37,420 bases of DNA from NCBI GenBank assembly GCA_964587725.1, contig CAZPLO010000013.1, positions 1 to 37,420 on the forward strand, written 5' to 3'. Origin of the DNA: an uncultured archaeon. GTDB taxonomy: Archaea > Altiarchaeota > Altiarchaeia > IMC4 > SCGC-AAA252-I15. The notes under the pieces are model-generated. The model made no database searches and was not told where the DNA came from. It worked only from the letters and a program-made list of their open reading frames with translations. Both the position numbers and the translations under genes were made by a program. Numbering within the stretch: position 1 is the first letter of the stretch; every line of letters begins with the position of its first letter. Below, piece after piece: positions 3,534 to 23,579 of this stretch.

Positions 3534-3544
3534 GCTTTCACCGC

Positions 3545-3877: not shown

Positions 3878-3878
3878 C

Positions 3879-4253: not shown

Positions 4254-4265
4254 CTCACTCACCCC

Positions 4266-4709: not shown

Positions 4710-4711
4710 GT

Positions 4712-5221: not shown

Positions 5222-5493
5222 TGCTTGTACCTCTGGTCGAACCGCGTCCACGCCGAAGACGCCTTCGAACCCGCTTCGTCGAGGGCGGACAGCACCTTCT
5301 CCTTAATCTCCTTCGTGGTCACTTCGCCCGTCTTCTTCGCGGACTCGGTGACGTCCTTGACGGTCTTCTCAATCAGCTCCTTCTTCTCCTCAACGGACTC
5401 TCCGGCGTCGACCAACGCCTTCTTGATGGAATTCCTGATCTTATCTTCGCTGTATTCCTCCTGTTCCCCGCTTTCCTTCTTTACATTAAACAT
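5218..5493 (-). CDS. Stand-alone ATP-cone domain protein
   Basis: VKKESGEQEEYSEDKIRNSIKKA matches the ATP-cone N-terminus; VTTKEIKEKVL; SD GAGGTGA. Confidence 0.75.
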   Translation of the reverse strand: MFNVKKESGEQEEYSEDKIRNSIKKALVDAGESVEEKKELIEKTVKDVTESAKKTGEVTTKEIKEKVLSALDEAGSKASSAWTRFDQRYKQ

Positions 5494-5504
5494 TTTTCAT
5501 CACC

Positions 5505-6302
5505 TCATAGTTCCGTGTCGTTAACCAGTGTCGATCCTCCGCTGGAGCCCGCCAACTCCAACACCCTCTCCAGCGACACGACCTCTGGGTCGTATATGAC
5601 CCAGTGGGTGTCCTGCGACAGGCTGAAGCTCTTGGTAATTATTCCGGGCTCGTTACTCAGCAGCTGCCCGACATTGTTTGCGCAGCTCCTGCCGAAAAAG
5701 CTTATGTTGATGTAGGCCAGGTGATATCCTTCGTCGGCGTACCGGTCGAAGTAGCCGGTCACACGCAGCGTCGTGGTGGTGGGCAGCCGCAACGTGGTCG
5801 TGTTGCTCACCGTGTCGCCTATGGGCTCCAGTACGCAGGTGTTGTCCCTGCACACCGCCCTGGAGAAACATGATATGTGGTTGGATGTCGCCGGCATGCA
5901 CACTACGCCCCTGCACTCCTCCTCCAGCCGTCTCTTATACTCGTCCAAGTATTCCCTCGCTATTGCGGTGTTGGTGCCGCCGGCGGTGCAGCCGTTGCAG
6001 TCGCCCTTCGCCAGAACACAGTCGGAATCCAGTTCACAGTACTTCATCGGATCGAAGCCGAAGAACGTCGTGGTCGTCGCCTCCATCATCCCATACGTAG
6101 TGGAAGTAGGCTCCACACGAGGCTCAGATGCAGTCGTGGTGGTCTCCAATGGCGTTTCAGACGCTGGCATAGCCCATATAAGGTAGATTACAGCCAACCC
6201 AATCAGGAATACGGCAATATGCCAGGGTTTAACGCCCGTGGAGACAGAATCCTGTTTTCCAGTGTTTTCAGAGCCCTCAGATGGTGTTTCGTCCTGCGCC
6301 AA
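5505..6302 (-). CDS. Membrane-anchored Cys-rich protein with Thr-rich linkers and a degenerate C-terminal HMA-like domain
   Basis: TM PWHIAVFLIGLAVIYLIW, TTTT linkers, 9-Cys domain, GRSCANNV...VIYDPEVVSLERV; TTG start after GGAGG. Confidence 0.7.
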   Translation of the reverse strand: MAQDETPSEGSENTGKQDSVSTGVKPWHIAVFLIGLAVIYLIWAMPASETPLETTTTASEPRVEPTSTTYGMMEATTTTFFGFDPMKYCELDSDCVLAKGDCNGCTAGGTNTAIAREYLDEYKRRLEEECRGVVCMPATSNHISCFSRAVCRDNTCVLEPIGDTVSNTTTLRLPTTTTLRVTGYFDRYADEGYHLAYINISFFGRSCANNVGQLLSNEPGIITKSFSLSQDTHWVIYDPEVVSLERVLELAGSSGGSTLVNDTEL

Positions 6303-6344
6303 ATGTCCTCCACTAATGTGTTATACATGAGGGTTTAAAAGCTT

Positions 6345-6425
6345 TCAGTACACCATCCTGTAGAGCAGTATAATGGCTATTAAGGCAGCCAGAAGCAGTA
6401 TCCAGACCGCCACAGCCCTCCACAC
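6345..6425 (-). CDS. Putative 26-aa single-TM microprotein
   Basis: GTG start; VWRAVAVWILLLAALIAIILLYRMVY fills the gap after the LigD-PE gene; weak RBS. Confidence 0.35.
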   Translation of the reverse strand: MWRAVAVWILLLAALIAIILLYRMVY

Positions 6426-6441
6426 CGCCTTTCAACCGCAT

Positions 6442-7002
6442 TCAACCCTCCTGTTCCCGTATCTCATCCAACGACCTGCCCGTCAGCGCCGAATCCGGTT
6501 CCGTGCTCACCGGATTCCTCCTCGCGTCGGCTTCATCGTCTTTCGTCTTCACCATAATCCAGTGCCGCTGTTTGGGCCGGGTGAGGGTCAACGCGTACCC
6601 TCCCTTCAGTTTCCTCCCGTCCAGCCACACCTTGATGTGGCCGTTCTCCAAACCTTTCGAAACGCTCTCTTCGTTGAGGTTTTTATATTCGCCGGTGTCC
6701 CACACCATCACCGTCCCCGCGCCGTACTCGCCCTCAGGGATAGTGCCCTCGAATCCGGCGTAGTCGAGGGGGTGGTCTTCCGTCATTATCGCAAGTCTTT
6801 TCACGCCGGGGTCGGTGGACGGACCCTTAGGAATCGCCCACGACTTCAGCACGCCGTCCACCGCCAACCGGAAGTCATAATGCAGGTGGCTGGCGTCGTG
6901 CTTCTGAATCACAAAAACGCCCCCCTTGTCTGTTCCGCCGGACGGCTCCGGCGTCTTCCGGAAATCCCGTTTCTCCTCGTAGTCTTTGAGTTTGTCGCTC
7001 AC
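6442..7002 (-). CDS. Stand-alone LigD 3'-phosphoesterase (PE) domain protein
   Basis: KRDFRKTPEP, FVIQKHDASHLHYDFRL, SWAIPKG, EDHPLDY, FEGTIPEGEYGAG; GTGA overlap with the DUF72 stop. Confidence 0.92.
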   Translation of the reverse strand: MSDKLKDYEEKRDFRKTPEPSGGTDKGGVFVIQKHDASHLHYDFRLAVDGVLKSWAIPKGPSTDPGVKRLAIMTEDHPLDYAGFEGTIPEGEYGAGTVMVWDTGEYKNLNEESVSKGLENGHIKVWLDGRKLKGGYALTLTRPKQRHWIMVKTKDDEADARRNPVSTEPDSALTGRSLDEIREQEG

Positions 7003-7718
7003 TCTAGCATCCCCTCCAATGTTCTCGCGTTCTCCACCGCGTAGGCGTTGGCGTCGTTGTTGAAGTACGCGTACACGCGGTCGCATCCCGCATCCCTTAT
7101 TTTCTTGCCGTACTGTTTGAGTTCCTTATCGGAGTAGCTTTTATTATAGCTTCCGCCGTGGAACCGGAAGTACCCCACCCGGTGTGTGACTACGGTTTCC
7201 TCGGGCATGCCGAGACCGGACACGGTCACGAAAGCGGTTTTATGGTCCTCCAGCAGCCGGTATACTTCGTCATCCCACCAGCTGTGGTGTCGGAATTCGA
7301 CCGCGTTGTCTCGGCGGCCGTCCAAAGAATGCAGAAAGTCTTTAAGCCGGCTCATGTTCTCTTCAGTTCTTTTGAAAGACGGCGGCAGCTGGAACAAATG
7401 ACAGCCCTTTTTCCTGCCGAGCAGGCTGGTGAGTTCGTACAGGCCCTTCACCTTCACGCCGACGTCGTGCAATTTCTTCACGTGGGTTATGGTCCGCGGC
7501 GCCTTTATCGTGTACTTGAAGCCCTTGGGCGCCACCCACTCCCAGTTGCGGAGGGTCTTCTCCCTGGGCCAGTGGTAGAAGCTGTAGTTCACCTCCACGG
7601 TGTCGAACCGTTCGCTGTAGTATCCGAACCAGTGCTTCCTAGGCAGCCCCTCCGGGTAGAACCGCTTCATCCAGTGGCGGTAATTCCAGCCGGAAGCCCC
7701 CACCAGATACTCAACCAT
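6999..7718 (-). CDS. DUF72 (YecE) family protein
   Basis: GASGWNY, TVEVNYSFY, KAPRTITH, FQLPPSF, EFRHHSW, RFHG, YFNND. Confidence 0.93.
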   Translation of the reverse strand: MVEYLVGASGWNYRHWMKRFYPEGLPRKHWFGYYSERFDTVEVNYSFYHWPREKTLRNWEWVAPKGFKYTIKAPRTITHVKKLHDVGVKVKGLYELTSLLGRKKGCHLFQLPPSFKRTEENMSRLKDFLHSLDGRRDNAVEFRHHSWWDDEVYRLLEDHKTAFVTVSGLGMPEETVVTHRVGYFRFHGGSYNKSYSDKELKQYGKKIRDAGCDRVYAYFNNDANAYAVENARTLEGMLE

Positions 7719-8214
7719 GGTATGCCTCCGCAAACTCTTTCACGTCCTTTTTGAACCGTTCCTCCATCTCAGGAAACCTCATAGCAGCAGCCGGGTGATA
7801 GGTTTCAACATACCGTATGCCGTCTAGTCGCGAGGTCTCCCACGCCACCCTACCCATCAACAGCACATGCTTCGGCGTTATCTCCTCAAGCTGCCTCCGT
7901 AGAAAAGGCATGCACGCTTTTATCTCGTCCTTCCTCTGCTTCCTATTATTCGGCGTCTTGTGCTTCACCACCGACGTGATGTAAAGTTCGCCCCGGTCCA
8001 TGCCGTATTCCTCCAACACGGAGTCCAGGTACTCACCCGCCCTACCGACGAACGGCCGGCCCGTCTCATCCTCCTTCGAACAGGGGTTCTGCCCCACCAA
8101 CATTGCGTCCGCGTCCACGGGACCCTCTCCCGGCACCGCCTCATGGGCTGTCTTCCACAATCTGCAGCGCCTGCACGCCCTTATTTCACGGTACAGTTCA
8201 TCCATTCCTCCCAT
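7711..8214 (-). CDS. udg: Uracil-DNA glycosylase family 4
   Basis: CRRC, VPGEG, GQNP, GRPFVGRAG, YHPAA; start may be 8205. Confidence 0.88.
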   Translation of the reverse strand: MGGMDELYREIRACRRCRLWKTAHEAVPGEGPVDADAMLVGQNPCSKEDETGRPFVGRAGEYLDSVLEEYGMDRGELYITSVVKHKTPNNRKQRKDEIKACMPFLRRQLEEITPKHVLLMGRVAWETSRLDGIRYVETYHPAAAMRFPEMEERFKKDVKEFAEAYHG

Positions 8215-8449
8215 ATGTGCAGGTCAGCTCCGCCGCGTCCACGAGGGTGTCGTGGAGGGGGATGTTCCACGCCAGCCAGTGAGTCCACGTGCCCTTCCTG
8301 GAGTCCACGTCCTCCATGTGGAGGGCGAGGGAGACGGCGCCGTCGGGTATGTCTTCTATGGTCAGCGACGGGTTCACGTCTTCTCCGTCGCACGTGTATC
8401 TCTCGGGTATCCTGCCTCCGCTGGGGAAGGCGCAGCTTATCAGTTTCAT
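8198..8449 (-). pseudogene. YbhB/YbcL (PEBP) family gene with a large in-frame internal deletion
   Basis: IPERYTCDGEDVNP, EDVDS, WTHWLAWNIP, then directly the C-terminal AELTCTYGR; GY.GP.PP and HRY motifs absent; only 83 aa. Confidence 0.65.
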
Positions 8450-9273
8450 CGTTCGAACTCCGCGAACGGCGGAACAATGATTCGGCCGCCGTCGCCTATC
8501 GAGTCTATCCTCTCCATTTCATCCTCCGACAGTTCGAAGTCGAACACTTTCATGTCCTCCGACGCGTGCTCCACCGAACTGGACTTGGGGATTACCACAG
8601 TGTCCTTCTGCAGCAGCCACCGCAGTGAAACCTGCGCGGGGGATTTGCCGTGTTTCTCACCTATCTCCTTTAATGTGGGGTTGTCCATCACATCCCCCCT
8701 CGCCAGGGGACTGTATGATTCGACAACGACGTCTTTACCCACACAGTATTCGAGCAGCCTCCGCTGGTAGAGGCCGGGGTGGAACTCCACCTGATTCAAT
8801 GTGACGTCGAGGCCCAGTTCCTCGCATGCAGGCAGATTCTGTTCCAGGTGCTTCACTGTGAAGTTGCTGACCCCCGCATACCGTATTCTGCCGCCGTCGA
8901 CGAGCTCCTTGAATGCCTTGAAGGTGCCTTTCATGTCCATGGTGCTGTCCGGCCAGTGTATCATGTATAGGTCGAGGTAGTCGGTGCCCAGCCGCCTCAG
9001 GCTGCCTTCGCACGCCCTCAACGTTTTGTCGTAGCCGAGGTTGCTCTGCCACACCTTAGAGGCTATGAACAGTTCCCCCCGGTCGAAGCCTTCTATGCCG
9101 TCGCGTATCTCCTCCTCGTTCCCGTACATTTCCGCAGTGTCAAAATGGCGGTACCCCATCTCCAAAGCCTTCGAAACCATTTTGACGCACGCGTCGCCTG
9201 TCAACTGCCAAGTACCCAAGCCCAAGACGGGGATTTCAACCCCGTTGCTCAACTTCTTGCCGGGTATGTCCAT
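8446..9273 (-). CDS. Aldo/keto reductase (2,5-DKG reductase-like)
   Basis: LGLGTW, DTAEMY, DLYMIHWP, GVSNF, NQVEFHP, IPKS. Confidence 0.95.
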   Translation of the reverse strand: MDIPGKKLSNGVEIPVLGLGTWQLTGDACVKMVSKALEMGYRHFDTAEMYGNEEEIRDGIEGFDRGELFIASKVWQSNLGYDKTLRACEGSLRRLGTDYLDLYMIHWPDSTMDMKGTFKAFKELVDGGRIRYAGVSNFTVKHLEQNLPACEELGLDVTLNQVEFHPGLYQRRLLEYCVGKDVVVESYSPLARGDVMDNPTLKEIGEKHGKSPAQVSLRWLLQKDTVVIPKSSSVEHASEDMKVFDFELSEDEMERIDSIGDGGRIIVPPFAEFER

Positions 9274-9274
9274 T

Positions 9275-10384
9275 TCATTTCAGCCTCGCCTGCTTCTTCA
9301 ACGCAGATATTATGTCGTCGAATACTTCGATGGGGTCCCATCCACTTTTGGCGGCGTGGAAGTTCCGGAGGTCGGTTATCATGTTCGCCTTCATCTCGTA
9401 CAGGGTTTTCCTGCCTTCGTCGTTGGTGGATTTCACGGTCACCTTCAATTCCTTCAGCGTATCCAGCCCTATTCTCTTGTCGTAGAAGTCTGTGAATGAC
9501 TTGAGGCTTTTCTCCATCTGCTTCCACGTGAACGGGTCGAACTCGTGCTTGGAGATGATGGCTATCTTCTGCTTGCTCAAGTCGGCGGCGGGCCGGAAGC
9601 CCTCGAGGAACCGGAGGACGTCCCTGAATGTGACTAGGGTGCCGTCGACTCCCGCGTACACTGTGTTGTAGTATCGCATGTCGTTCAGTATCTTGTGGAG
9701 GCTGTCGTCCCTGCTTCCGCGGACCACCAGGAGCTCTGTCGCGTTTTGGGCGTCGACGCCGAGGCGCTTGGTTTTTTCGCCGGAGCGCTCCCCCACCGTC
9801 GTGGTCTTCCGGGGGAGCCGGGATATTTTCTCGGCGTAGTCTTTCTCGCCTATGAGGCGGTTGGCTTCCGCCTCCCCCACCAGCATCTTGGTGAGCTCCT
9901 TGTCCCTCAAAGCCACTCTCGCCTTGTCGACTTCCTCGTGGACGCCTATTGTCGGATAGTCCATGGGGTCTATGTCGCCTGCCTTCATGTTCTTGAACTC
10001 GTCCTGTTGGATGCACCAGTCCAGTATCCTCTGGAGTGTGAGGAGGCGTGCGGGGTTGTCTTTCTCGCCCACGGGTATTGCGCGGAAGCTGTTGCTCCAC
10101 ATGTCGTGGAGTGCGTCGAATACGCTGGTGTCTTCCGGCAGCACCGGCGTGCGGGTGAGAGCCGACTTCACCTTGGCCTTGTCCGGCTGGTTTTTGGATG
10201 AGACTATGTCCCTCGCGGACAGCATGCCCTCGTATTTTTTGCCGTCGAACACTGGCAGCGCCTGCGTCCGGTGTTTTATCATCTTCCCTATGGCCGAACC
10301 CAATGTCTCGGACGGGGCCAGCCGCGCCTTCGGTTCCTCGCACAATTCCGTCAACGTTGTAGTGCCTAACTTTTCGTCTAACAT
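9275..10384 (-). CDS. CBS-domain protein with a C-terminal HPF/RaiA-like domain (HibA-like archaeal ribosome hibernation factor candidate)
   Basis: Two CBS pairs, then a ~95-aa beta-alpha-beta-beta-beta-alpha pattern (LKVTVK...YEMKANM...AAKSGWDPIEVFDDIISALKKQ). Confidence 0.72.
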   Translation of the reverse strand: MLDEKLGTTTLTELCEEPKARLAPSETLGSAIGKMIKHRTQALPVFDGKKYEGMLSARDIVSSKNQPDKAKVKSALTRTPVLPEDTSVFDALHDMWSNSFRAIPVGEKDNPARLLTLQRILDWCIQQDEFKNMKAGDIDPMDYPTIGVHEEVDKARVALRDKELTKMLVGEAEANRLIGEKDYAEKISRLPRKTTTVGERSGEKTKRLGVDAQNATELLVVRGSRDDSLHKILNDMRYYNTVYAGVDGTLVTFRDVLRFLEGFRPAADLSKQKIAIISKHEFDPFTWKQMEKSLKSFTDFYDKRIGLDTLKELKVTVKSTNDEGRKTLYEMKANMITDLRNFHAAKSGWDPIEVFDDIISALKKQARLK

Positions 10385-10578
10385 CCTGATACCTCACACA
10401 CGCAGAGTCCGTGCTGTTTGAGTAGAAAACAAAATCGCGTTTCTCCAGCCTGCTTTTTCCTCACGTGTTCCTCCGCAGACGAGAATGTGAACCACAGTTT
10501 ATAAATCATACGGCCTGAAAACGAAATTCTCATAAATTAATGATTTTTCCTTGTAAATTCATGATTTTTCATTAATAT

Positions 10579-11262
10579 TTAAGAATCCGTTACCACCACG
10601 CAGTCGCCGTCCTGGCAGTAGGTTGCTCCGCCCCTGCACGCGTCCACGGGGCTTAGACTGAGGCTGGAGTCCTCCACACAGTATGAGTCCGGCGTGGTGG
10701 GGTTCCTGCACACGGGAGTCACCGTCTTCAAGTACACGTCGCCGAGGTGGCAGACCCTCTCCCTGCTGGGCAGTCCGCAGTCCGTGTTCCTGCTGCACCG
10801 GATTTCCGGGGTGGTTGTTGTCGTCGACGTGGATGTGGTGGTCGGCACCAGAATGCATTCTCCGCCGACGCACGCGGGCCGCATGAAGCATGACGGGTGG
10901 TTGGACATCACCGCAGGGCACATGATGGCAGCACATTCCGGGGCTAGCATGTTCAGCCACTCCTCACGGTACGCCCGCGCCACCGCCGTCGCCTCACCGC
11001 CGGATGTGCAGCCGCAGCATCCCGCGTCGGCCGAAACGCAGTCGAAGTCGGAGTCGCAGATCATGAGGTAGGATAAGTCGGCGACGGTCGTGGAGGTGGA
11101 CTCCGGGGTTTTGTAGGCTGTTGAAGTAGTGGTTGAAACTACGATTGACGCCCCAGTTACCGGGTGGTTGTCGTATCCGTCCCACGCGATCCACACAACA
11201 ACCGCCACCAATACCGCGACCGCAGCCAGCAGAGGATATCTGGAGCCGTTATTCAACACCAC
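10579..11262 (-). CDS. Membrane-anchored Cys-rich surface protein (two disulfide-rich domains, Thr linkers)
   Basis: N-terminal TM; 10-Cys domain paralogous to 5505-6302; second C...TDC domain. Confidence 0.75.
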   Translation of the reverse strand: MVLNNGSRYPLLAAVAVLVAVVVWIAWDGYDNHPVTGASIVVSTTTSTAYKTPESTSTTVADLSYLMICDSDFDCVSADAGCCGCTSGGEATAVARAYREEWLNMLAPECAAIMCPAVMSNHPSCFMRPACVGGECILVPTTTSTSTTTTTPEIRCSRNTDCGLPSRERVCHLGDVYLKTVTPVCRNPTTPDSYCVEDSSLSLSPVDACRGGATYCQDGDCVVVTDS

Positions 11263-11393
11263 ACCACCCCCACGGGGTCGGCGATTACCGCGTAAGCGCC
11301 GGCCTTGGATGTGTCGCAGAAGCTGCCGTGTCCGTGTTCGAGGGGTGTGCCGCAGACGAGGCAGACGTCGTGTTTAACGTGCGATTCTTCCAT
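11253..11393 (-). CDS. Putative 46-aa Cys/His-rich microprotein
   Basis: MEESHVKHDVCLVCGTPLEHGHGSFCDTSKAGAYAVIADPVGVVWC; overlaps neighbours on both sides. Confidence 0.4.
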   Translation of the reverse strand: MEESHVKHDVCLVCGTPLEHGHGSFCDTSKAGAYAVIADPVGVVWC

Positions 11394-11496
11394 CCGCACC
11401 AGCCTCTTCACCCAGTACGAAGACGTTGACCACCTGGAGGTCGCGGTCTTCTCCCACAGACATTGTGGTGTGATCCTGAATTACCAGCTTCTTCAT
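11374..11496 (-). CDS. Putative 40-aa microprotein
   Basis: SD GAGGTGA, then MKKLVIQDHTTMSVGEDRDLQVVNVFVLGEEAGADGRIAR. Confidence 0.45.
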   Translation of the reverse strand: MKKLVIQDHTTMSVGEDRDLQVVNVFVLGEEAGADGRIAR

Positions 11497-11502
11497 CCCC
11501 GT

Positions 11503-11613
11503 TCACCTCAGATACCATTCAATGGTCTGCGCCTTCACCTGCGTCCAGTTCACCTGCTTGGTCAGGGGGAAGTGTACGTTACCCCCCCTCTCAACCGTAT
11601 GTTCTTCTTCCAT
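11503..11613 (-). CDS. Putative 36-aa microprotein
   Basis: SD GGAGGT, then MEEEHTVERGGNVHFPLTKQVNWTQVKAQTIEWYLR. Confidence 0.45.
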   Translation of the reverse strand: MEEEHTVERGGNVHFPLTKQVNWTQVKAQTIEWYLR

Positions 11614-11806
11614 CTAAACCTCCATAAACTGTTTTCTTAAGGCCGCCCATCCTCTTGTCGCGGAGGTATCTTTCAACCTCCGAGCTGATGAACGACTTAA
11701 GCCTGGCTCTGCCGCGGCTCCTCTGCTCCGCGGACAGTGCAGCCCACCTGCCCACGTCCGCCGCATACGACGGCGGCATGGGCTCGCTCGCGTAGCTTAT
11801 GTTCAC
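11591..11806 (-). CDS. Hypothetical 71-aa basic protein
   Basis: GGAGG SD before GTG, directly after the stop of the 564-aa gene. Confidence 0.5.
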   Translation of the reverse strand: MNISYASEPMPPSYAADVGRWAALSAEQRSRGRARLKSFISSEVERYLRDKRMGGLKKTVYGGLDGRRTYG

Positions 11807-11818
11807 CCGTTCCTCCGT

Positions 11819-13513
11819 TTAAAACCTCGTCCTCGGCACCCCGGTGGGGTTGCTCTCCCACTCCCGGCCGCCCCTGTTCTTCAACGCGAAGTACAGGAGC
11901 ACCGCCAGCGGCAGGTATATGCCCGACCCGCCGGATGGTATGTGGACTAATGCGTTCCCCAGCACCGTGGTTATGGTGGACGACACGGTTATCTCGTGCT
12001 CGACTTCGTCTACGTCATCCAACTCCACCGTGAGGACATAGTCTCCCGTGTCCTCCACAGGGAACGTGAACCCCAGGGACTCCGTCTCGTCCGCGTCCAC
12101 GTATACGTCCTGGGCCTGCGTCTCGAACCCCGACTCGCCCGTCAGCGTCGCGGATACGGGGTAGCTCATCCCTTTGGTGCCCGTATTCCGCACCTTCACG
12201 GCGACGTTCAAATCCTCTCCCTCCTCGGGTTCAGCGTATGCGACGTCGACTATGACGCCCTGCCGGTCGAACACACCCTCTGGATAGATTGTGACCTCGA
12301 CTTCGTCGTAGACTTCCTTCCCCGCTGATTCCACAGTCACCTTGCCGGCGTATGTGCCGGGGGTTATGCCCTCGTTGTCGCATTCCACCGTGAACGTCGA
12401 AACCGTATTGGGCGCTGCGTCGCCGAGCCTCAAGTCGCATGTGCCCTGCACTTCATCGTCTTCGTCCACCACCTTCATGTGGAGCCACGGCTGCCGTTCC
12501 TTGTCGGCTGGGTTGTCGAATTTCACCGTAACGGGTATGAACCCTTCTTCCTCGCTCTCCCCTACGGACACGTCAAGGACGTGTCCGCAGTCGCCGTCGG
12601 CGTAGCAGCCTACGGGCCGGTTGGCCTCGTCCACTTTCACGCAGTAGTCGCGGCCGCCTTCGAACGGGAACCGGTCTCCGTTGTAGCACATCCGCGAGTT
12701 CAAGTCGCATTTCACCCGGTCTATGCCGTGCTCGTTCATCACGTTCCTGAGGTTCTCGCAGTACAGGTCCTTGTCCATCATCTTCAACGTCATGTCAATG
12801 GCTTCCACGGCGTAGTTGGTCCTCTCCAGCGACTCCTGGGTGCCGACTATTGCTTCGCTGTTGCCCCCTATTCTGCCGCTGTTGGAGTTGATTGCCTTGC
12901 GGTTGACGTTGACTTCGTCGCGGGTGTCCCCTATGATGCCGTAGACTTTAGTGAATTCAGGCCCTGTTATGTCTCTTACTTCGGCGCCGGTGAACGCCGC
13001 AAGCGACTCCAGTATCGAGTATTCCACGTACCCTATGCTCTTGGATTTCCCAGTCCTGTAGTCCGCCACCTCCTTGAGGGCGCGGTCCATCGCCCCGGTC
13101 GCCGACTGCTGGTCGGGCTCCAGTTTGTAGAGTTCCTCGTGGGTGTGCGTCGTAATCAGCGTGTTGTTAGGGAGGTCTTCCCAGTTGACGTCGTTGAAGT
13201 AGACTTCCACGCCTCCGTTGCTGCCGAAGTAGTTGTTAGCCACAATCTTCGAGCCTGACCCGGCTGACGCTATTCCCGCTCCTTCTCCGCTGGCGGACAC
13301 CTGGTCGCTGGTGAGGTAGTAGTTGTTGGCTGTTATGCTGCCGCCGGCCACAACCTCGCTGTTGCTGTTCACGTTTCCGTCGGCGTTCGTCTCCACGTTC
13401 GTGTTCGCGTCCTGGTCCGTCTCCACCTTTATGTCGACGGTTACTTCAGCGGCCGCCGCGCCGCAGAGCACCGTCAACACCATCAAGACCGTCAGGTAAG
13501 CTGCTGCTTTCAT
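11819..13513 (-). CDS. Secreted, C-terminally anchored surface protein (coiled-coil stalk, Cys cluster, Ig/CARDB-like domains)
   Basis: Signal peptide ending AAAA-E; N@d heptads; VKVRNTG-type Ig strands; C-terminal TM plus KNRGGR; SD GAGGTGA. Confidence 0.8.
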   Translation of the reverse strand: MKAAAYLTVLMVLTVLCGAAAAEVTVDIKVETDQDANTNVETNADGNVNSNSEVVAGGSITANNYYLTSDQVSASGEGAGIASAGSGSKIVANNYFGSNGGVEVYFNDVNWEDLPNNTLITTHTHEELYKLEPDQQSATGAMDRALKEVADYRTGKSKSIGYVEYSILESLAAFTGAEVRDITGPEFTKVYGIIGDTRDEVNVNRKAINSNSGRIGGNSEAIVGTQESLERTNYAVEAIDMTLKMMDKDLYCENLRNVMNEHGIDRVKCDLNSRMCYNGDRFPFEGGRDYCVKVDEANRPVGCYADGDCGHVLDVSVGESEEEGFIPVTVKFDNPADKERQPWLHMKVVDEDDEVQGTCDLRLGDAAPNTVSTFTVECDNEGITPGTYAGKVTVESAGKEVYDEVEVTIYPEGVFDRQGVIVDVAYAEPEEGEDLNVAVKVRNTGTKGMSYPVSATLTGESGFETQAQDVYVDADETESLGFTFPVEDTGDYVLTVELDDVDEVEHEITVSSTITTVLGNALVHIPSGGSGIYLPLAVLLYFALKNRGGREWESNPTGVPRTRF

Positions 13514-13567
13514 TTTATCGTTTTCACCTCTTTTTCCTCTACCTTCATTTTTCGCCTTAAACTTGAT

Positions 13568-13605
13568 TTGAGCCTGCCGCGGGACTCGAACCCGCCGGGG
13601 CAGAC
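13568..13605 (-). ncRNA. tRNA-minihelix-like element (acceptor stem plus T-arm)
   Basis: Minus strand GUCUGCC-CCG-GCGGG-UUCGAGU-CCCGC-GGCAGGC-UCAA: 7-bp stem (one G-U), 5-bp stem, canonical 7-nt T-loop. Confidence 0.55.
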
Positions 13606-13630
13606 AAAAAAATGTGGGGGTGAGACCCCC
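13606..13630 (-). terminator. Hairpin plus U7 terminator-like element
   Basis: GGGGGU-CUC-ACCCCC then ACA-UUUUUUU, about 10 nt after the stop of the 224-aa gene. Confidence 0.65.
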
Positions 13631-13639
13631 GTGTTGTGT

Positions 13640-14314
13640 TTACTGCGTGCACTCGCCGTTCGGGCACTCGCAGAAGGGGCCTTCACACCCTGGCACTTCC
13701 GGTATCGGGCAGTCGTTGCAGATGCCGATGCCGACCAACTCCTCGTATATGAAGGGGTCGTCGGTCAAGATGCCCTTCTGGAACACACCAATGTTCGGGT
13801 TGTTGGAGCCTATCAGGCCAGGCCCATGCGCCGCGTCAGGGGTGTCCATCAGGAAGTACACGCTCTCCACGTCGTGCAAGGCTGCGGTGTTGAACATGGT
13901 GTCAATCCACGCCTCCGTTGGGTAAGCCAGTTCTCCGGGGGCACCGTTGGGGTTCCTCCACGGGTCCTGGGCGTTCTCCCAGAGTGTCGTGTCTTCCGTC
14001 CACACAGCCACTTCCTTCTCTATCAGGGTGTCGCCTGAGCCAGTTACATACTTGGCTTCCTGCATTACCCACGGAGCTGGGTTGTAGACCTGAGCCCCTA
14101 TCAGTATGCTACCGTCGTTGTCGATGCACTCATCGATGTAGCCGGTAACCTGCCAGGTCTGCCCTTCGCTCCAGTCCATACCCCGGACCATTGAGGTCTG
14201 GGAGTACTTCGTCTTTCCTCCTGTGTTCTGGACCATAGCCTCTATGTTGCTCATCGCGGAAGCTGCTCCCGCAAGGAACACCAAGGCCATAACTCCAGCC
14301 AACAGTTTTTTCAT
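13640..14314 (-). CDS. Secreted beta-rich hypothetical protein with a Cys/Pro-rich tail
   Basis: Signal peptide MKKLLAGVMALVFLAGAASA; SD GAGGTGA; tail CNDCPIPEVPGCEGPFCECPNGECTQ; alternative in-frame ATG at 14374. Confidence 0.8.
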   Translation of the reverse strand: MKKLLAGVMALVFLAGAASAMSNIEAMVQNTGGKTKYSQTSMVRGMDWSEGQTWQVTGYIDECIDNDGSILIGAQVYNPAPWVMQEAKYVTGSGDTLIEKEVAVWTEDTTLWENAQDPWRNPNGAPGELAYPTEAWIDTMFNTAALHDVESVYFLMDTPDAAHGPGLIGSNNPNIGVFQKGILTDDPFIYEELVGIGICNDCPIPEVPGCEGPFCECPNGECTQ

Positions 14315-14475
14315 TTTTTCTTCTTCACCTCTTGTTTTTTTAGTGTTGTCTATTTGATGTATAGACCGTGACATGATTCAGTACCTCCAGTCGACGTTGT
14401 ACGCCGACTCGGCGATTACGTGATGAACTCTCTTCGGTTTTTTGTTTATGTAGAAATACTTTTTGACTTGGATTT

Positions 14476-14582
14476 GGGGTTCGGTGCAGGCCAGTGCAAA
14501 AGCAGTCTTGGCGTCAGAACAGTATGCTTCAGTCCCCGGCGTATCTCCAACGGTGGTTGGCTTGCAGCCTGCACCGGACCCC
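14476..14582. ncRNA. Structured intergenic RNA candidate / long inverted repeat
   Basis: GGGGTTCGGTGCAGGC pairs with GCCTGCACCGGACCCC (16 bp, one G-U on + strand); inner TGCAA/TTGCA, AAGCA/TGCTT, CCAAC/GTTGG. Confidence 0.45.
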
Positions 14583-14860
14583 GTCCCACCCACCAGTCCA
14601 TATGTGAGCTTACTCAACAAAACCTCCAGCAGATGTTGATGTTGAACCGGTTATTGAGAACAGATTACATAGGAAGTAGTGAGCGGATTTTGGGTGAGAA
14701 AAACTATGCTGCCACCCGCCCACGTGTTCGGATTTTTTTTGCTTAAGTTCTGCCAACAAATCCTCCGTTGTGGTATGTGAGTCCCTGTATAAAAACACAC
14801 CGGTTTCAAATGTGAAGTAAGTATTCAATTTTTATTCGCATCCGCACAAACAGTTTCACC

Positions 14861-17818
14861 GTGGAATCCGAAACAGAAGACGGTGGCTACCGGCCCCTCC
14901 GCGACAAAGACCTGACGGTTTTGCTGGCGATGATGGTGTTTCTGGGACTGTACGCCGCCAGTTTAAGGAATTTCCTGTTCTTCCACGTGACCGCCGAGTT
15001 GTTCAGCATCGTCATAGCCGCGGGGGCGTTCATGTTCGTGTGGAACAGCCGCCGCTTCCTCGACAACAACTACCTCCTCCTGGTGGGCGTCGGCTTCCTG
15101 TTCATCGCAGGCATAGACTTGATACACACCCTCGCATACAGGGGAATGGATATTATCGGAGAAGGCAGCAACACGGCAACACAGCTGTGGCTTGCCGCAA
15201 GATACATGCAGGCGCTGACGTTTTTGGCCGCGCCGCTGCTGCTCAGCCGGAAACTCAACCCCTACCACATCGCCGCAGGCTACGCATTGGCGACCGCGTT
15301 CCTCCTCGCCTCCATCATGGTGTGGGACGTGTTCCCCACAGCCTACGTCGAGGGTGTGGGGTTGACCGCGTTCAAGGTGTACAGCGAATACTTTATAATA
15401 GTATTACTGGGTGCGGCGGCGTACCTCCTGCACAGAAGACGGAACCGTTTCAACCCCGGCGTACACCACCCCCTACTCTACAGCATCTATGCAACCATGC
15501 TGTCGGAGCTGGCGTTCACCTTCTACGTGGACGTGTACGGGTTCAGCAACTTCATAGGCCACGTGCTGAAGATAATAGCGTTCTACCTCGTCTACACAGC
15601 CGTTATCGAAACCGGATTGCTGAAGCCGTACAGCATACTCTTCAGAGAAATCAAGAACAGGGAGGAGGAGCTGGAGCGTAGCGAGGAACGATACCGGAGC
15701 GTGGTGCAGACGCAGACGGAGCTTATCGCTAGGGAGAAACCCGACGGCACCATAGTCTACGCGAACCCCGCATACTGCAGGTTCTTCGGTAAGTCTTTGG
15801 ATAAGTTAGAGGGGACGAGCACCTACGACCACATCCCCGAGAAGGACTGGGAGATTGTGAAGAACACATACGAGTCGCTTAAACGCGGGGAGGAGGTTGT
15901 TGTTGAGAACCGGGACGTCCGCGCCGACGGGGAAGTGCGGTGGCTGCAGTGGAAGGACGCCGGCGTATTCAACGAACAGGGGGAGCTTATTGAGGTGCAG
16001 GCTGTGGGGCGGGACATAACCGACCGCAGACGGGCGGAGGAAGCGGTTCAGAGGGAGCGCGACAAGCTGTTGAACTTCCTGGAGTCCATGGAGGACGGAG
16101 TCTACATAGTCGGCGCAGACCATCAGGTGGAGTACGTGAACCCCGTGATAAAGGAGGAGTTCGGCGTCGTGGAGGGGAGGAATTGTTTCGAATACTTCAG
16201 CGGCCTGGACGAGCCGTGTCCGTGGTGCAGCCTCGGCAGGGTGTTGAAGGGGGAGACGTGCAGGACCGTGTGGACGTCGCCGAGGAATGCGAGAACATAC
16301 GACATCATCGACACCCCCGTACACAACCCCGACGGCAGCGTCTCGAAGCTGAAGATTATGCGGGACATCACCGAACAGAGCATAATACAGGAGGAGCTCC
16401 GGAAGTCCGAGCAGAGATACAGGTTCCTCTACAACGAAAGCCCGTCCCTCAACGTGGTGTTGGACACCGACGGCGTCATAAGGAACGTGAACCAGACCGT
16501 GTTGGCGGAACTCGGATACGGACGCGGTGAAGTGGCGGGGAAGCACATGAGGGATTTCATCGCTGAAGAACAGCAGAAGGACGTGGACGCCGCAATCAGA
16601 AAACTCGTTTCAGGCGAATCCACCGGCGACATGGAGGTGGCCGTGAGGGCCAAAGACGGCGGCGAACACATCATACTGTTCTCTCCCGGAAAGGCCGGGG
16701 CATACGAGCACGGCAACTTCTCAGGCATACTGTTGACTGGCGTAGACATCACCGAGCAGAAAAGGGTGGAGGACGCCCTGCGGCAGTCCGAAGGCATGTA
16801 CCGGTCGCTCGTCGACGCCTCCCCCGACGCCGTATTGCTGGGAGACATCGACGGCAACCTGACCTATGCGTCGCCGAGGGCTCTGAAGATGTTCGGGTAC
16901 GGGGAGCTGGCAGGCAAAAACATATCCGAGCTGGTCGCCAAAGGAGGCAGAAACAGGATAAAGTCGGACATGGAGCGGATGAAGGCATCCCACGTGCTCC
17001 GCCGCATAGAATACACGATGGTGCGCGGAGACGACACCACCTTCGTCGGCGAACTCAGCTCCGCCGTGATAAAGGACGCGAACCGTCAGCCGAAATGGTT
17101 CATCACCATCGTCCGGGACGTGACCGAACGCCGCGAGCTGGAGGACCTGCGGAGCAGATTGCTGCGTGACTTAGCCCACCAGCTGAAGACGCCGTTGAGC
17201 GTGATAGAGATGGCCTCCGACGTGTTGAAAAAAGACATGGAGGACTACGACGAAGCCGAAACGGAGAGCCTGGACATGATATCGCGGAACACCGTGGAGA
17301 TGCGTGACCTGGTGTCGAAGATACTGAAGCTCAGCTCCCTGGAAAGCGGCAGGATAAAGGTGAACAGGGAGAAGTTCGATTTGGTGGAGGCCGTGAAAGA
17401 GGTGACGGTGGATATGAGGCTGCTGGCGGACGAGAAGAAACTCAAACTGAAGGTGAAGACGCCAACGCACTTGACCGCATACTCCGACCCCAAGAAGATA
17501 GAGGACGCCGTCGGGAACCTGGTGGAGAACGCGATAAAATACACGGACAACGGCACGGTCACGGTGACCGTTGAAAAAGACAACGGAGACGCCGTGGTCA
17601 CGGTTAAAGACACGGGCATCGGACTCACCAGACAGGATTTGAAGCAGGTGTTCACCCGCTTCTACAAGGCCGACGCCAGCGTACCCGGCACCGGCCTGGG
17701 GCTGAATATTGTGGCAGAGGACATGCGGCTGCTCGGCGGCTCGGTGGAGGCGGAATCCAGGGGCCCCGGAGAAGGAAGCGTTTTTAAGATAAGGTTCCCA
17801 ATAGCGAAGGCGAAATGA
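14861..17818 (+). CDS. MASE3 membrane sensor, four PAS domains, histidine kinase
   Basis: FFHVTAELFSIVIA MASE3-type TM region; four PAS/PAC (RDIT/RDVT ends); AHQLKTPL, NLVENAIKYT, DTGIG, GTGLGL. Confidence 0.92.
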   Translation: MESETEDGGYRPLRDKDLTVLLAMMVFLGLYAASLRNFLFFHVTAELFSIVIAAGAFMFVWNSRRFLDNNYLLLVGVGFLFIAGIDLIHTLAYRGMDIIGEGSNTATQLWLAARYMQALTFLAAPLLLSRKLNPYHIAAGYALATAFLLASIMVWDVFPTAYVEGVGLTAFKVYSEYFIIVLLGAAAYLLHRRRNRFNPGVHHPLLYSIYATMLSELAFTFYVDVYGFSNFIGHVLKIIAFYLVYTAVIETGLLKPYSILFREIKNREEELERSEERYRSVVQTQTELIAREKPDGTIVYANPAYCRFFGKSLDKLEGTSTYDHIPEKDWEIVKNTYESLKRGEEVVVENRDVRADGEVRWLQWKDAGVFNEQGELIEVQAVGRDITDRRRAEEAVQRERDKLLNFLESMEDGVYIVGADHQVEYVNPVIKEEFGVVEGRNCFEYFSGLDEPCPWCSLGRVLKGETCRTVWTSPRNARTYDIIDTPVHNPDGSVSKLKIMRDITEQSIIQEELRKSEQRYRFLYNESPSLNVVLDTDGVIRNVNQTVLAELGYGRGEVAGKHMRDFIAEEQQKDVDAAIRKLVSGESTGDMEVAVRAKDGGEHIILFSPGKAGAYEHGNFSGILLTGVDITEQKRVEDALRQSEGMYRSLVDASPDAVLLGDIDGNLTYASPRALKMFGYGELAGKNISELVAKGGRNRIKSDMERMKASHVLRRIEYTMVRGDDTTFVGELSSAVIKDANRQPKWFITIVRDVTERRELEDLRSRLLRDLAHQLKTPLSVIEMASDVLKKDMEDYDEAETESLDMISRNTVEMRDLVSKILKLSSLESGRIKVNREKFDLVEAVKEVTVDMRLLADEKKLKLKVKTPTHLTAYSDPKKIEDAVGNLVENAIKYTDNGTVTVTVEKDNGDAVVTVKDTGIGLTRQDLKQVFTRFYKADASVPGTGLGLNIVAEDMRLLGGSVEAESRGPGEGSVFKIRFPIAKAK

Positions 17819-18186
17819 AGAAGAACATACTTGTGGTGGAGGACAACAAAGACCTTCAGAGGCTGTATCACAGGATGCTGTCCGACAGATACAACCTCTA
17901 CCAGGTCAGGGACACCAAGGAGGCGTGGAGGATAATCAGCCAGAAACCCGTGGACCTGGCCATACTCGACATCATACTGCCGAAAGGCAACACCGGCGAC
18001 CAGTTCTACATGCAGCTGACCCAGGACCCCGAATACCAGCACATCCCCGTCATATTCGTGTCAGTCATAGACGACGTAGAGGAGGCGCGGGCGCTGGAGA
18101 ACGTCAACCACGCAGCATACATAACCAAGCCGTTCAAGGAGGAGCAGCTGCTCGATAAAATAGAGGAGATGCTCGGAGATGGTTGA
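17815..18186 (+). CDS. Single-domain response regulator (receiver)
   Basis: ILVVED, LAILDIILP, YITKPF; ATGA overlap with the kinase. Confidence 0.92.
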   Translation: MKKNILVVEDNKDLQRLYHRMLSDRYNLYQVRDTKEAWRIISQKPVDLAILDIILPKGNTGDQFYMQLTQDPEYQHIPVIFVSVIDDVEEARALENVNHAAYITKPFKEEQLLDKIEEMLGDG

Positions 18187-19444
18187 AGCGAACTGGGCGG
18201 TGGACTACACCGCACTCTACGGCTTCCTCATATCCTTGGGCGTGGGGGCGCTGGTGGGGATAGAGAGGGAACGCCGCCTGCAGAGGAAGGACGAGCGCCA
18301 GGTGGCGGGTGTTCGGACGTTCATATTGATTGCGTTATTGGGAACCACCGCAGCTTTAGTGGCTGAAGACAACCCGTACTTCTCCGCAGTGATTGTGGCA
18401 GGCGGAATACTGTTGATCGGCGCAGGATACTATCTGTCCAGCACCAGAACAAATGATATCGGGTTAACTACGGAGGTGGCTCAGCTGCTGGTTTTCGCCT
18501 TCGGATACCTCGCATACGATGAGGGCACCCGGAACGTGAGCGTGATGCTGGGCATAATAACCGCCGTACTGCTGGCCCTGAAGGAGCACCTGCACGAGTT
18601 CGCGAAAGACATACAGAAGTACGAGTTCATAGACACCTTGAAGTTCGCGGTCATCGCCTTCATCATACTGCCGCTGCTGCCGGACAGGACCATAGACCCG
18701 TGGGGCGTCGTCAACCCCCACCAGCTGTGGCTGCTGGTGGTGTTGATTTCAGGCATCAGCTACGTAGGATACATACTGGTTAAGGTGCTGGGCGTTGAAC
18801 GCGGACTCGGCCTCACCGGCTTCCTCGGAGGCCTCAGCTCCTCCACCGCCGTGACCACCGCCATGGCGTCCAAAACAAGCAGGAACTCTTCGGTGGTTAA
18901 GCCGGCCGCGTTCGCGGCCGTGATAGCTTCGACGGTAATGTTCCCGCGCATCGTGTTCGAGGTCGCGGTGGTCGACCGCGGACTGCTCGCGGAGGTGGCG
19001 GTTCCGGTGGCGGTGATGTTCCTCGCCGGACTCGCGGCCGCACTGCTCCTGTGGAGGAGCAAGAAAGACATCAAGGCCGACCTGGATTTGAAGACCCCGT
19101 TCGCGCTGAAGCCTGCGCTCAAGTTCGGGGCGTTCTTCCTGATAGTCCTGCTGCTGCAGCACTTCGGAAAAACATACTTCGGCAGCGGCGGACTCTACGC
19201 GGTCAGCCTGGTGTCTGGGCTGGCGGACGTCGACGCCATAACACTGTCCACGGCGAGGATGGCTTCCACCGGCGACATAAACTCGCAGACGGCGGTGAAC
19301 GCGATAGTGTTGGCTGCCATGGCCAACACGGTTATGAAGGCGGTGTACGCTTACGTGATCGGGAACCGGGGCTTCGGAAACCTCGTGGCAGCCGCTTCAG
19401 CGGCCATGATAGTGGCGGGCGCCGCCACCATACTCCTTCTATGA
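18179..19444 (+). CDS. MgtC/SapB family membrane protein with DUF4010
   Basis: LVGIERE, AGVRTF, GLTTE, GGLSSSTAVT, GLADVDAI. Confidence 0.88.
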   Translation: MVEANWAVDYTALYGFLISLGVGALVGIERERRLQRKDERQVAGVRTFILIALLGTTAALVAEDNPYFSAVIVAGGILLIGAGYYLSSTRTNDIGLTTEVAQLLVFAFGYLAYDEGTRNVSVMLGIITAVLLALKEHLHEFAKDIQKYEFIDTLKFAVIAFIILPLLPDRTIDPWGVVNPHQLWLLVVLISGISYVGYILVKVLGVERGLGLTGFLGGLSSSTAVTTAMASKTSRNSSVVKPAAFAAVIASTVMFPRIVFEVAVVDRGLLAEVAVPVAVMFLAGLAAALLLWRSKKDIKADLDLKTPFALKPALKFGAFFLIVLLLQHFGKTYFGSGGLYAVSLVSGLADVDAITLSTARMASTGDINSQTAVNAIVLAAMANTVMKAVYAYVIGNRGFGNLVAAASAAMIVAGAATILLL

Positions 19445-19446
19445 GA

Positions 19447-20058
19447 CTACTTCAGTATCTTCCCCGTCTCCAGATACCACAGGTACAGATCCAGTTCCGC
19501 TAATGTTATGCCGAGTTCCCCAGCCATCTCCCTTAACTTCTCCTCAATCATCAGATACTTCTTCCTCGTCAGCGTCTTCGGCTTAGCTATGATTTTATGC
19601 TCCACCAGTGCGTCTATGATGTGGAAGTCGATTATTGCGACGTCCTTGAAACCTATGTTCCTCAAAAAGTGGCTGGCCTCCTTCAATCCCAGACCCTTCA
19701 CGTTCTCCACCAGCCAGTCACGCAGCTCCCGTTCGTCATTGAACTTCAGCTTCTCCAGCGGATGCTCCCGCGCACACACGATGTATTTGGCGCGGACGTT
19801 CGGAAACCGGTACCCGAGCTCCTTCAGCCTGGAGGCGAGCTCCGGTTCGGACAGTTCCGCGAACCCGTCGCCGACCTCGTTCTGGATGGCTATTGCGCGT
19901 TCCGCGTTATAGTTCGCCGTAAGTATGCAGAAGCAGAGTTCATTGAACAGCGAGCACCGGGGCCGGCCCATCATCCCCCCGAACTCCCGTATCCTCGCCC
20001 TCACCCGTCCGCCGACCTCCCCACCCATAAGGGCGCGGACTCTATCCTGCAGGTTCAT
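19447..20058 (-). CDS. ogg: 8-oxoguanine DNA glycosylase/AP lyase (Ogg2)
   Basis: ELCFCILTAN, GYRFPNVRA, KGLGLKEASHFLRN, IIDFH, C-terminal GKILK. Confidence 0.93.
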   Translation of the reverse strand: MNLQDRVRALMGGEVGGRVRARIREFGGMMGRPRCSLFNELCFCILTANYNAERAIAIQNEVGDGFAELSEPELASRLKELGYRFPNVRAKYIVCAREHPLEKLKFNDERELRDWLVENVKGLGLKEASHFLRNIGFKDVAIIDFHIIDALVEHKIIAKPKTLTRKKYLMIEEKLREMAGELGITLAELDLYLWYLETGKILK

Positions 20059-20065
20059 GACAGAT

Positions 20066-20884: not shown

Positions 20885-20994
20885 GGTTGATATGTGGTAA
20901 TGGAGTTATTTAAGAACCAGCTATACACAAGGAAACCATGCAGCCGCCGCGCCAACGACCTTATTAACCTGGGATACGGTGTCTTAAACAGGAT

Positions 20995-22455: not shown

Positions 22456-22502
22456 CGGGGAAACGCCGTAAGTTAATAAGTTCTCCTTCGAATAACCCAC
22501 AT

Positions 22503-23570: not shown

Positions 23571-23579
23571 GGGTAGACG

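Follow-up and report, generated by a model that had tools for sequence, protein, structure and literature searches.

The stretch of DNA analysed here (hereafter the window) comprises 37420 nucleotides of contig CAZPLO010000013.1 from the genome assembly of an uncultured archaeon (GCA_964587725.1; 1.56 Mb in 48 contigs, 92% complete), placed in the Altiarchaeota, a phylum abundant in anoxic mats and in the subsurface. One of its housekeeping proteins has its closest named match, at 58% identity, in a Candidatus Altiarchaeota MAG (metagenome-assembled genome). On its minus strand, between positions 10579 and 14600, a sequence reading identified a run consisting, in order, of gene 1, a terminator, a tRNA-like minihelix, gene 2, four micro-ORFs (open reading frames A–D) and gene 3, flanked by genes for oxidative-stress and DNA-repair proteins. 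A first-pass annotation made from the letters alone had described this layout as a candidate appendage locus with RNA-level control; every element that it listed is present on the minus strand at or near the positions it gave, and the MASE3-PAS kinase and receiver that it placed divergently beside the run are there as well. Its statement that genes 1–3 belong to no recognised family was also borne out, since all three stayed below the cut-offs of Pfam and NCBIfam save for a borderline CARDB match in gene 2 (23.0 bits against a cut-off of 22.7); none of the seven locus products matched PHROGs. The interpretation that had been built on these confirmed observations was supported in part. The reading that we tentatively favour is that this uncultured archaeon, probably one of the Altiarchaeota, carries here an accessory cell-surface locus, in which gene 1 polymerises outside the cell, gene 2 forms a separate stalk and the other genes are non-structural. 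Its best-supported core, a gene-1 protein predicted to be a polymer-forming surface subunit and a gene-2 protein predicted to be a stalked, anchored surface protein, makes the locus a candidate for a new form of strand-pairing archaeal surface polymer, a proposal that rests on prediction.

Gene 1 and its predicted polymer contacts

Gene 1 (13640–14314, minus strand) encodes a 224-residue Sec-type secreted β-sandwich protein with a cysteine-rich C-terminal tail, the candidate polymer subunit. The protein has a single hydrophobic segment at the N-terminus (residues 1–22) and no second one, and six of its seven cysteine residues lie within the last 26 residues. The start codon giving 224 residues is correct, because all 27 aligned family members begin there. 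An exhaustive HMMER search of 1.84 billion cluster representatives returned 42 family members at E≤0.001, of which 27 were at ≤1e-10; nearly all are approximately 200 residues long and align from residue 1, with conserved motifs throughout the sandwich and a tail rich in cysteine. The named sources of the family are metagenome collections only. Comparisons within the phylum used the 61 genomes of our collection (60 besides the source genome), and a profile search of these 60 gave no match to the gene-1 family; the same profile was without a match in five genomes of other phyla and in 329 from another archaeal phylum. No part of the full alignment was suited to a pattern search, and the sub-alignment used instead gave nothing in 185579 species genomes or in viral contigs. 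No longer protein containing the gene-1 domain was found, which is weak evidence by the search's own account, and the ESM Atlas held no usable match for either gene 1 or gene 2. None of the 27 family members matched any named Pfam family (Peptidase_M73, the TasA/camelysin-like family, was tested at E≤0.1), and the gene-1 profile searched against PDB sequences showed no match to TasA or AbpA at E≤10.

The AlphaFold2 model of the gene-1 monomer, built from the 27-row alignment, was all-β with a pLDDT (predicted local distance difference test) of 86.7 and a pTM (predicted template modelling score) of 0.80. Foldseek, a check that the first-pass annotation had proposed for each product, gave nothing for gene 1 in the PDB at E≤0.001, the best match being at E 3.2e-3. 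An exhaustive VIA-align search reached a best Z of 5.7, below the level common for unrelated folds, and the structure matches in BFVD had low TM-scores (best row E 2.9e-4, TMq 0.23). Gene 1 is a rare, unnamed family, a β-sandwich with no clear solved relative.

Among the sequencing runs listed as containing the window stretch there was no RNA run; it is present in four DNA runs, all from one microbial-mat study, three of which may themselves be the source of the window. In one of these runs (X2) the assembly splits inside gene 1, between positions 13708 and 14162. The major version, at a depth of 65, is identical to the window, and the minor version, at a depth of 11.6, has the same flanks on both sides, is 54 nt (nucleotides) shorter and carries 30 substitutions together with two replaced segments. 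Across positions 9000–16000 this minor version was the sole difference listed in the four runs. We take this version for another allele, affecting the exposed body of the gene-1 protein, which fits an exposed surface protein.

We analysed the self-association of gene 1 by predicting complexes of three copies of the mature protein. The three runs scored 0.80, 0.79 and 0.62 (median 0.79), compared with 0.00 for the best of three controls; at least 86% of the contacts were shared between runs, and the partner pLDDT was at least 79. In calibration the mark was reached by 20 of 30 solved homomers and by one of 23 solved single chains, a comparison that holds only roughly for gene 1 because its prediction was run from a custom alignment and with three copies. 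The predicted interface is heterologous, with a surface A (residues 22–45, 74–84 and 207–214) meeting a surface B of the neighbouring copy (residues 63–65, 97–99, 141–160 and 174–188, plus 36–38). The copies are predicted to form an open chain in the order 1, 3, 2, in which copy 1 uses surface A alone, copy 2 essentially surface B alone, and copy 3 both. A heterologous interface of this kind leads to an open polymer or to a ring of more than three subunits rather than to a dimer. The residue pairs with the lowest predicted error run antiparallel (34–44 with 145–155 and 22–30 with 175–184), and the contact is accordingly modelled as strand pairing, either a true strand swap or an edge-to-edge arrangement. 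Both tail residues 207–214 and a subclade-specific patch around Cys63 lie within the predicted interface.

According to the mechanism that we propose, gene 1 would be exported by Sec as a β-sandwich of approximately 200 residues once cleaved and would polymerise extracellularly. Its N-terminal strands (residues 22–45) would pair antiparallel with strands 143–158 and 174–184 of the next subunit, and the heterologous interface would extend into an open chain, giving a fibre, a sheath or the rows of a lattice. The hallmark of donor-strand polymers, in which N-terminal strands pair head-to-tail with the sheet of the next subunit, is found in gene 1 in prediction only.

Fibres that form by strand pairing without a dedicated machine have lately been recognised in archaea, among them threads, bundling pili, cannulae and tafi. 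The closest comparison is with the threads of Sulfolobus acidocaldarius, for which the available text of PMC9715654 describes subunits processed by Sec and signal peptidase I, donor-strand complementation and a less-expressed second gene in the same transcription unit. As described there, the thread subunit Saci_0406, encoded with Saci_0405, resembles gene 1 in being a small β-rich protein with a Sec/signal-peptidase-I signal rather than a type IV pilin, and inserts an N-terminal strand into its neighbour, similar to the predicted gene-1 contact, which uses two N-terminal strands. We also count as alike the lower-expressed second gene of the thread unit and the lack of a known dedicated assembly machine, the expression ratio at the present locus being our own inference. 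In contrast, among the matches listed gene 1 showed no sequence or fold similarity to the thread subunit, and the phylum differs. The thread hallmark given for arCOG10215 in the same text is found only in part, as the Sec-like signal is present in gene 1 and the mature start of Asp followed by YYY is absent. The downstream gene also differs, since the second thread gene is portrayed as a subunit-like cap and the gene downstream here encodes a large anchored coiled-coil protein.

A second group for comparison comprises AbpA of Pyrobaculum, the Tat-dependent bundling pili and tafi of haloarchaea, TasA/TapA of Bacillus and the cannula protein CanA, which are characterised, in the parts of the literature available, as chaperone-free β-sandwich polymers built by strand donation. 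A nucleator or anchor gene is often described as adjoining the subunit gene in this group, as gene 2 does here. Gene 1 differs from these proteins, as far as their available descriptions go, in having no Pfam or PDB sequence match, in a Sec-type rather than a Tat signal, and in the cysteine-rich C-terminal tail peculiar to its family. Type IV pilins and archaellins have a class III signal peptide, with its own cleavage-site rule, and retain a long hydrophobic N-terminal helix after maturation; gene 1 does not qualify, for its hydrophobic segment is confined to residues 1–22 and β structure begins at residue 22. As the features of threads and TasA that were tested are lacking and no fold match was listed, gene 1 would represent a new family within the strand-donation class. 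If this is right, a fold-distinct family widens the class of strand-pairing fibres and offers a small, easily expressed protein for structural work.

The sole characterised appendage of the Altiarchaeota is the hamus, which the available text of PMC4975002 confines to one clade. The hamus protein of Candidatus Altiarchaeum hamiconexum is described there as 1808 residues long with S_Layer_N, NosD and FKBP_C domains. The hami are thus surface appendages of the same phylum, but these three domains are found in none of genes 1–3, and by sequence and by that account of the hamus protein the locus is unrelated to hami. Should the present reading be true, the locus would provide a second, unrelated surface polymer of the Altiarchaeota and bear on how another clade attaches or builds mats. 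A literature search found no publication treating Altiarchaeota and donor strand together, which is our sole ground for calling the locus unpublished.

Gene 2, an anchored stalk-like protein

Gene 2 (11819–13513, minus strand) encodes a 564-residue protein in which a signal peptide is followed by an Asn/Tyr-rich repeat head, a heptad helix, a cysteine knot, two sandwiches and a C-terminal membrane helix; the N-terminus is signal-like and the C-terminal hydrophobic segment spans residues 530–544. In an index of 5.8 billion proteins it had three relatives, with 42, 39 and 35% identity, the closest of which is labelled Altiarchaeota, and a fourth is encoded on one 1982-bp metagenome contig. Neither the gene-2 query nor its alignment found a relative in assembled-genome contigs, viral contigs or the 60 other phylum genomes. 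The alignment showed conservation of the signal peptide, the head (shortened in the homologue P0004), the helical middle and the C-terminal membrane segment, with eight invariant cysteine residues between positions 252 and 378 making up the knot. Codon usage of gene 2 (0.67) equals that of host housekeeping genes (0.66–0.69).

The heptads of gene 2 occupy residues 200–248. Seven are regular, with Ile, Val or Leu at position a in all four aligned homologues, and in the window protein Asn or Thr occupies position d of the first five. Searched against PDB sequences, the gene-2 profile gave weak matches to trimeric coiled coils, among them stalk fragments of SadA (E 0.0076 and 0.087). The SadA constructs carry GCN4 adaptors, and for this reason the matches may reflect a generic trimeric coiled coil. 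According to the available text of PMC13580157, polar residues are enriched at position d of trimeric autotransporter stalks, some of which carry Asn there over long runs. The AlphaFold2 model was confident for the two β-sandwiches (approximately residues 311–511), which in structure comparison resembled the tandem C-terminal barrels of transglutaminases and the biofilm scaffold RbmA; the borderline CARDB match falls on one of the two. Taken together, these features point to a probable trimeric stalk set on Ig-like domains above a single-helix anchor.

Trimeric autotransporter adhesins such as YadA, SadA and UspA1, as far as their available descriptions show, share with gene 2 the order of head, stalk and anchor and the heptads with aliphatic a and Asn d positions. 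The gene-2 anchor, in contrast, is a single C-terminal helix (530–544) and not a 12-stranded β-barrel, the protein is archaeal, its coiled coil is short (approximately seven heptads), and a cysteine knot and two Ig-like domains stand between stalk and membrane. A search of gene 2 and of its three aligned homologues gave no YadA_anchor match and no YadA-type head or stalk domain of Pfam. On sequence comparison, gene 2 resembles a trimeric autotransporter stalk in mechanism only and is not a member of that family; if the stalk is as proposed, it would be an archaeal counterpart of the bacterial trimeric adhesins.

Elsewhere in the genome, positions 79436–82957 of assembly contig C5 hold two tandem genes (414 and 444 residues) distantly paralogous to the membrane-proximal half of gene 2. 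Their products have a signal peptide, several Ig-like domains, a C-terminal membrane helix and a basic tail. Only the head, the stalk and the knot are, by this sequence comparison, peculiar to gene 2, and the Ig-plus-anchor type recurs elsewhere in the genome.

The earlier proposal of a major subunit with an anchor was upheld in so far as gene 1 is polymer-like in silico and gene 2 is fibre-like and C-terminally anchored; the minor components that it included were not (see below). Within the favoured reading, gene 2 would be a separate stalk or spike, probably trimeric, and the best candidate for the base or anchor of the polymer, or else an independent adhesin. Contact between the gene-1 and gene-2 proteins may take place.

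We also considered whether the two proteins might build a two-part envelope lattice, with gene 1 as a two-dimensional canopy or sheath held by trimeric gene-2 stalks. The SlaA/SlaB layer of Sulfolobales and stalked S-layers such as tetrabrachion are analogues of such an arrangement. A membrane-anchored coiled-coil stalk with sandwich domains and the predicted self-association of gene 1 agree with it, as does the expectation that an outer subunit would be abundant, together with its being polymorphic. However, the genes were not found in 60 relatives, including members of the same genus, where one would expect to find a main envelope layer conserved; the domain order of gene 2 is unlike that generally given for SlaB; and the single interface type predicted for gene 1 yields rows and not yet a sheet. 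We consider such a lattice improbable.

The terminator and minihelix between the two genes

A terminator directly after gene 1, as proposed in the first-pass annotation, was confirmed at positions 13606–13630 (minus strand). It consists of a hairpin (13630–13616; six pairs, five of them G-C) that starts 10 nt past the stop codon, followed by three bases and a run of seven T residues (13612–13606). An oligo-T run is the archaeal termination signal. In Methanococcus maripaludis, internal terminators giving unequal expression occur in 38% of operons, according to the available text of PMC10450193. The terminator right after gene 1 would lead to gene 1 being made in excess.

Abutting the T run directly with its 5′ end is the tRNA-like minihelix (13572–13605, minus strand), a 34-nt element that we propose as a putative processing site for RNase P and tRNase Z. 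A 7-bp acceptor-like stem is joined by a 3-nt linker to a 5-bp T stem with a 7-nt loop, TTCGAGT. The 1.56-Mb genome contains this geometry once, and a set of 20 shuffled genomes produced a single example (mean 0.05). The best Rfam row for the element was mascRNA (RF01684), which has the same pairing but fell far short of the threshold (E 6.3; 15.7 bits, with the gathering score at 42.5). No tRNA was called by ARAGORN in the window, and the minihelix has neither the D arm nor the anticodon arm of a cloverleaf.

In Haloferax, RNase P and tRNase Z cleave tRNA-like elements embedded in transcripts, as set out in the available text of PMC4946936. Both these t-elements and mascRNA at the 3′ end of MALAT1 are described as mimics of the acceptor and T arms within a longer transcript, and in this respect they resemble the present element. 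In contrast with them, the element here is a 34-nt minihelix only, is fused to a T-run terminator, and its cleavage is putative. The fusion of terminator and minihelix would be the new RNA feature of this locus.

The following scheme can be proposed by analogy. RNA that reads through the terminator would carry the minihelix, a probable substrate of RNase P and tRNase Z, whose cuts would separate the gene-1 message from the downstream message. A cut by RNase P between positions 13606 and 13605 would leave a gene-1 mRNA with the same hairpin-U7 end as the terminated RNA, and a cut by tRNase Z would free the gene-2 message with a leader of approximately 57 nt. If this is true, RNase P cleavage of read-through RNA reproduces the 3′ end made by termination, and the terminator–minihelix fusion would be a compact and directly testable form of transcript punctuation in archaea. 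Control at the RNA level, including the processing and the expression ratio, is likewise putative.

A more far-reaching version of the proposal can be formulated, in which the gene-1 family makes up a previously undescribed class, distinct in fold, of fibre subunits that are exported by Sec, pair by strands without a chaperone and are locked by a cysteine-rich tail reaching the next subunit; the fibre grows from a trimeric stalk with Asn at position d, and the ratio of subunit to base is set by the terminator–minihelix fusion as a composite RNA signal that would itself be new. We regard this combination as a long shot.

Upstream of gene 1, the structured leader element of the first-pass annotation corresponds to a 16-nt inverted repeat on the minus strand (14476–14491 with 14567–14582), with arms 75 nt apart and 94% complementary. 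Its folding energy was not clearly below that of shuffled sequences; folding was marginal for 306 nt (z −1.94; four of 100 shuffles as good), and the surrounding 141 nt had a z of +0.86. The repeat may sit either in the transcript or upstream of the promoter. No Rfam family or riboswitch was found in the leader at gathering score, with chance-level rows alone at E≤10.

The remaining genes and the coherence of the run

Downstream of gene 2 lie the four micro-ORFs, all on the minus strand. ORF A (11591–11806) has a GTG start and encodes a basic protein of 71 residues (pI 10.3); ORF B (11503–11613; 36 residues) overlaps the end of ORF A; ORF C (11374–11496) encodes 40 residues; and ORF D (11253–11411; 52 residues) overlaps the start of gene 3 and has four cysteine residues in a zinc-ribbon-like spacing. 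ORFs A, B and C each have an SD-like (Shine–Dalgarno-like) motif upstream. Each of the four is best in its own frame by codon usage, with scores reached by 0.7–1.8% of 5783 chance open frames. ORF D gave Pfam matches to DZR_2 (E 0.025) and DUF2116 (E 0.033), both below the cut-off, and ORFs A and D had no match in the 60 phylum relatives. The earlier view that the micro-ORFs encode minor appendage components did not hold up, as none of the four has a hydrophobic segment; they are therefore cytoplasmic small proteins rather than exported minor fibre components.

Gene 3 (10579–11262, minus strand) encodes a membrane-anchored protein of 227 residues with 18 cysteine residues, an N-terminal membrane segment (residues 7–30) and two cysteine-rich modules joined by Thr/Ser-rich linkers. 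The modules occur at seven places in this genome, including window positions 5790–6197, and in 32 of the 61 phylum genomes, in unrelated contexts; the family is often multi-copy, in host frames of approximately 100 to 1450 residues. Paralogues of the module were seen at window positions 5505–6302 and on assembly contigs C16, C23, C2, C10 and C25. On these sequence comparisons the module is a generic, uncharacterised, lineage-wide extracellular cysteine-rich domain, probably not specific to the locus, and the earlier assignment of the cysteine-rich protein as a locus component was not supported. The micro-ORFs and gene 3 would be co-transcribed passengers or regulators, not structural parts.

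The patchy, strain-specific distribution of genes 1 and 2 and of ORFs A and D, the overlap of the small ORFs, one of them zinc-ribbon-like, and the presence of a tRNA-like piece would also fit a remnant of a mobile element or virus, in which gene 2 is a viral or vesicle spike, the micro-ORFs are small viral genes and the minihelix is an integration scar. Against such an origin, annotation of the window proteins revealed no integrase, replication, capsid or packaging gene in the 37 kb. None of the seven products matched PHROGs, no relative was found in viral contigs, the BFVD matches had low TM-scores, and the codon usage of gene 2 matches that of host housekeeping genes. We rejected the minihelix as a tRNA-derived integration scar on two grounds: the assembly holds no second copy and no matching tRNA 3′ half (the longest match elsewhere is 13 nt, in the T-arm part of the minihelix), and a scar would be expected to lack the complementary 5′ acceptor strand. 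The first of these checks is weak because ARAGORN detected just 14 tRNA genes in the 92%-complete assembly. Altogether, a mobile or viral remnant is very improbable.

The low tRNA count is an observation in its own right; presumably many tRNA genes either went unassembled or have a non-canonical structure.

Several features speak in favour of a link between genes 1 and 2. The run is co-oriented with short gaps, save for approximately 125 nt between the two genes, and the small ORFs overlap. Genes 1 and 2 have in common a 28-nt near-repeat at translation initiation, 86% identical (13508–13535 and 14309–14336), which spans the SD-like motif, an A-rich spacer and the first two codons, and the unique minihelix is placed exactly between them. 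SD-like 5-mers precede five of the seven genes (genes 1 and 2 and ORFs A, B and C), compared with 79 of 655 long ORFs in the genome, for which starts were crudely assigned.

The first-pass annotation had named the co-location of homologues in advance as one observation on which its reading would stand or fall, and the outcome was half unfavourable. The gene-1 and gene-2 families were seen together only here, and neither was found in the 60 other phylum genomes. In the only other context available, L015, a gene without recognisable resemblance to gene 1 stands directly before the gene-2 homologue (BLASTP E 1.9; hhalign probability 0.1%). The gene-1 family is approximately ten times larger than the gene-2 family, which leaves most gene-1 relatives without a detectable gene-2 partner. 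These observations weigh against the favoured reading, and so do five others concerning the two proteins themselves. Residues of the gene-1 interface are not significantly more conserved than others (one-sided p 0.06–0.14). A closed ring of more than three gene-1 subunits would fit the same predicted contacts. The self-association rests on model confidence and not on a measurement. Known archaeal strand-exchange subunits, the thread subunit included, were absent among the matches listed by Foldseek and VIA-align, an absence from the matches listed that is not an exclusion. Finally, the model of gene 2 was poor outside residues 310–511 (mean pLDDT 51). The verdict on co-location is itself thin and open to revision, resting as it does on a single other context.

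The lack of any conserved co-location, together with the non-significant conservation of the interface, would also be expected if genes 1–3 were unrelated neighbours, that is, independent secreted or anchored accessory proteins in a variable region, with gene 1 forming a small oligomer at most. In line with this, gene 1 has its own terminator and gene 2 its own SD motif and a TATA-like stretch, which we read as a putative promoter; gene 3 comes from a generic multi-copy family, and the other anchored tandem Ig-like proteins of the genome make the base of gene 2 a common type. However, the heterologous interface predicted for gene 1 geometrically gives rings or polymers and not dimers. Moreover, independent neighbours would not readily account for the near-identical 28-nt initiation region of genes 1 and 2, for a unique minihelix exactly at their junction, or for a co-oriented run with short gaps, apart from that of approximately 125 nt, and overlapping small ORFs. 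We judge this alternative rather unlikely, and retain the reading in which gene 1 is an extracellular polymer subunit and gene 2 a separate stalk. The sequence features, the two families with their rarity and the confidence of the gene-1 fold are established here, whereas the self-association and its geometry come from models, the partnership of the two genes and the role of the minihelix are putative, and both the fibre and the RNA mark rest on prediction.

The kinase lies in the divergent block at positions 14861–19444 on the plus strand, which contains a histidine kinase with MASE3 and four PAS domains, then a stand-alone receiver and then an MgtC/DUF4010 membrane protein. No link was found for the earlier suggestion that the adjacent two-component system controls the locus, and the receiver has no output domain. 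In the five closest genomes searched, the kinase had no full-length counterpart and no conserved neighbourhood; the matches cover the PAS and kinase parts and not MASE3.

Farther out, positions 1–9300 and 19400–35600 of the window are unusually rich in oxidative-stress and repair genes, encoding desulfoferrodoxin, ferritin and rubrerythrin paralogues, DJ-1/PfpI, peroxiredoxin, a thioredoxin-reductase-like protein, a flavodiiron-like protein, hemerythrin, UDG, Ogg and a LigD phosphoesterase domain. An 83-residue ORF at positions 8198–8449, which overlaps the next gene, matches just positions 1–60 of the 135-position PEBP profile and may be a truncated or frameshifted PEBP gene. The A+T-rich gap separating gene 3 from a CBS-domain gene contains two adjoining 20-nt direct repeats (10533–10573; 90% identical, 21 nt from start to start), which could be a regulator-binding site or a promoter element of the CBS gene.

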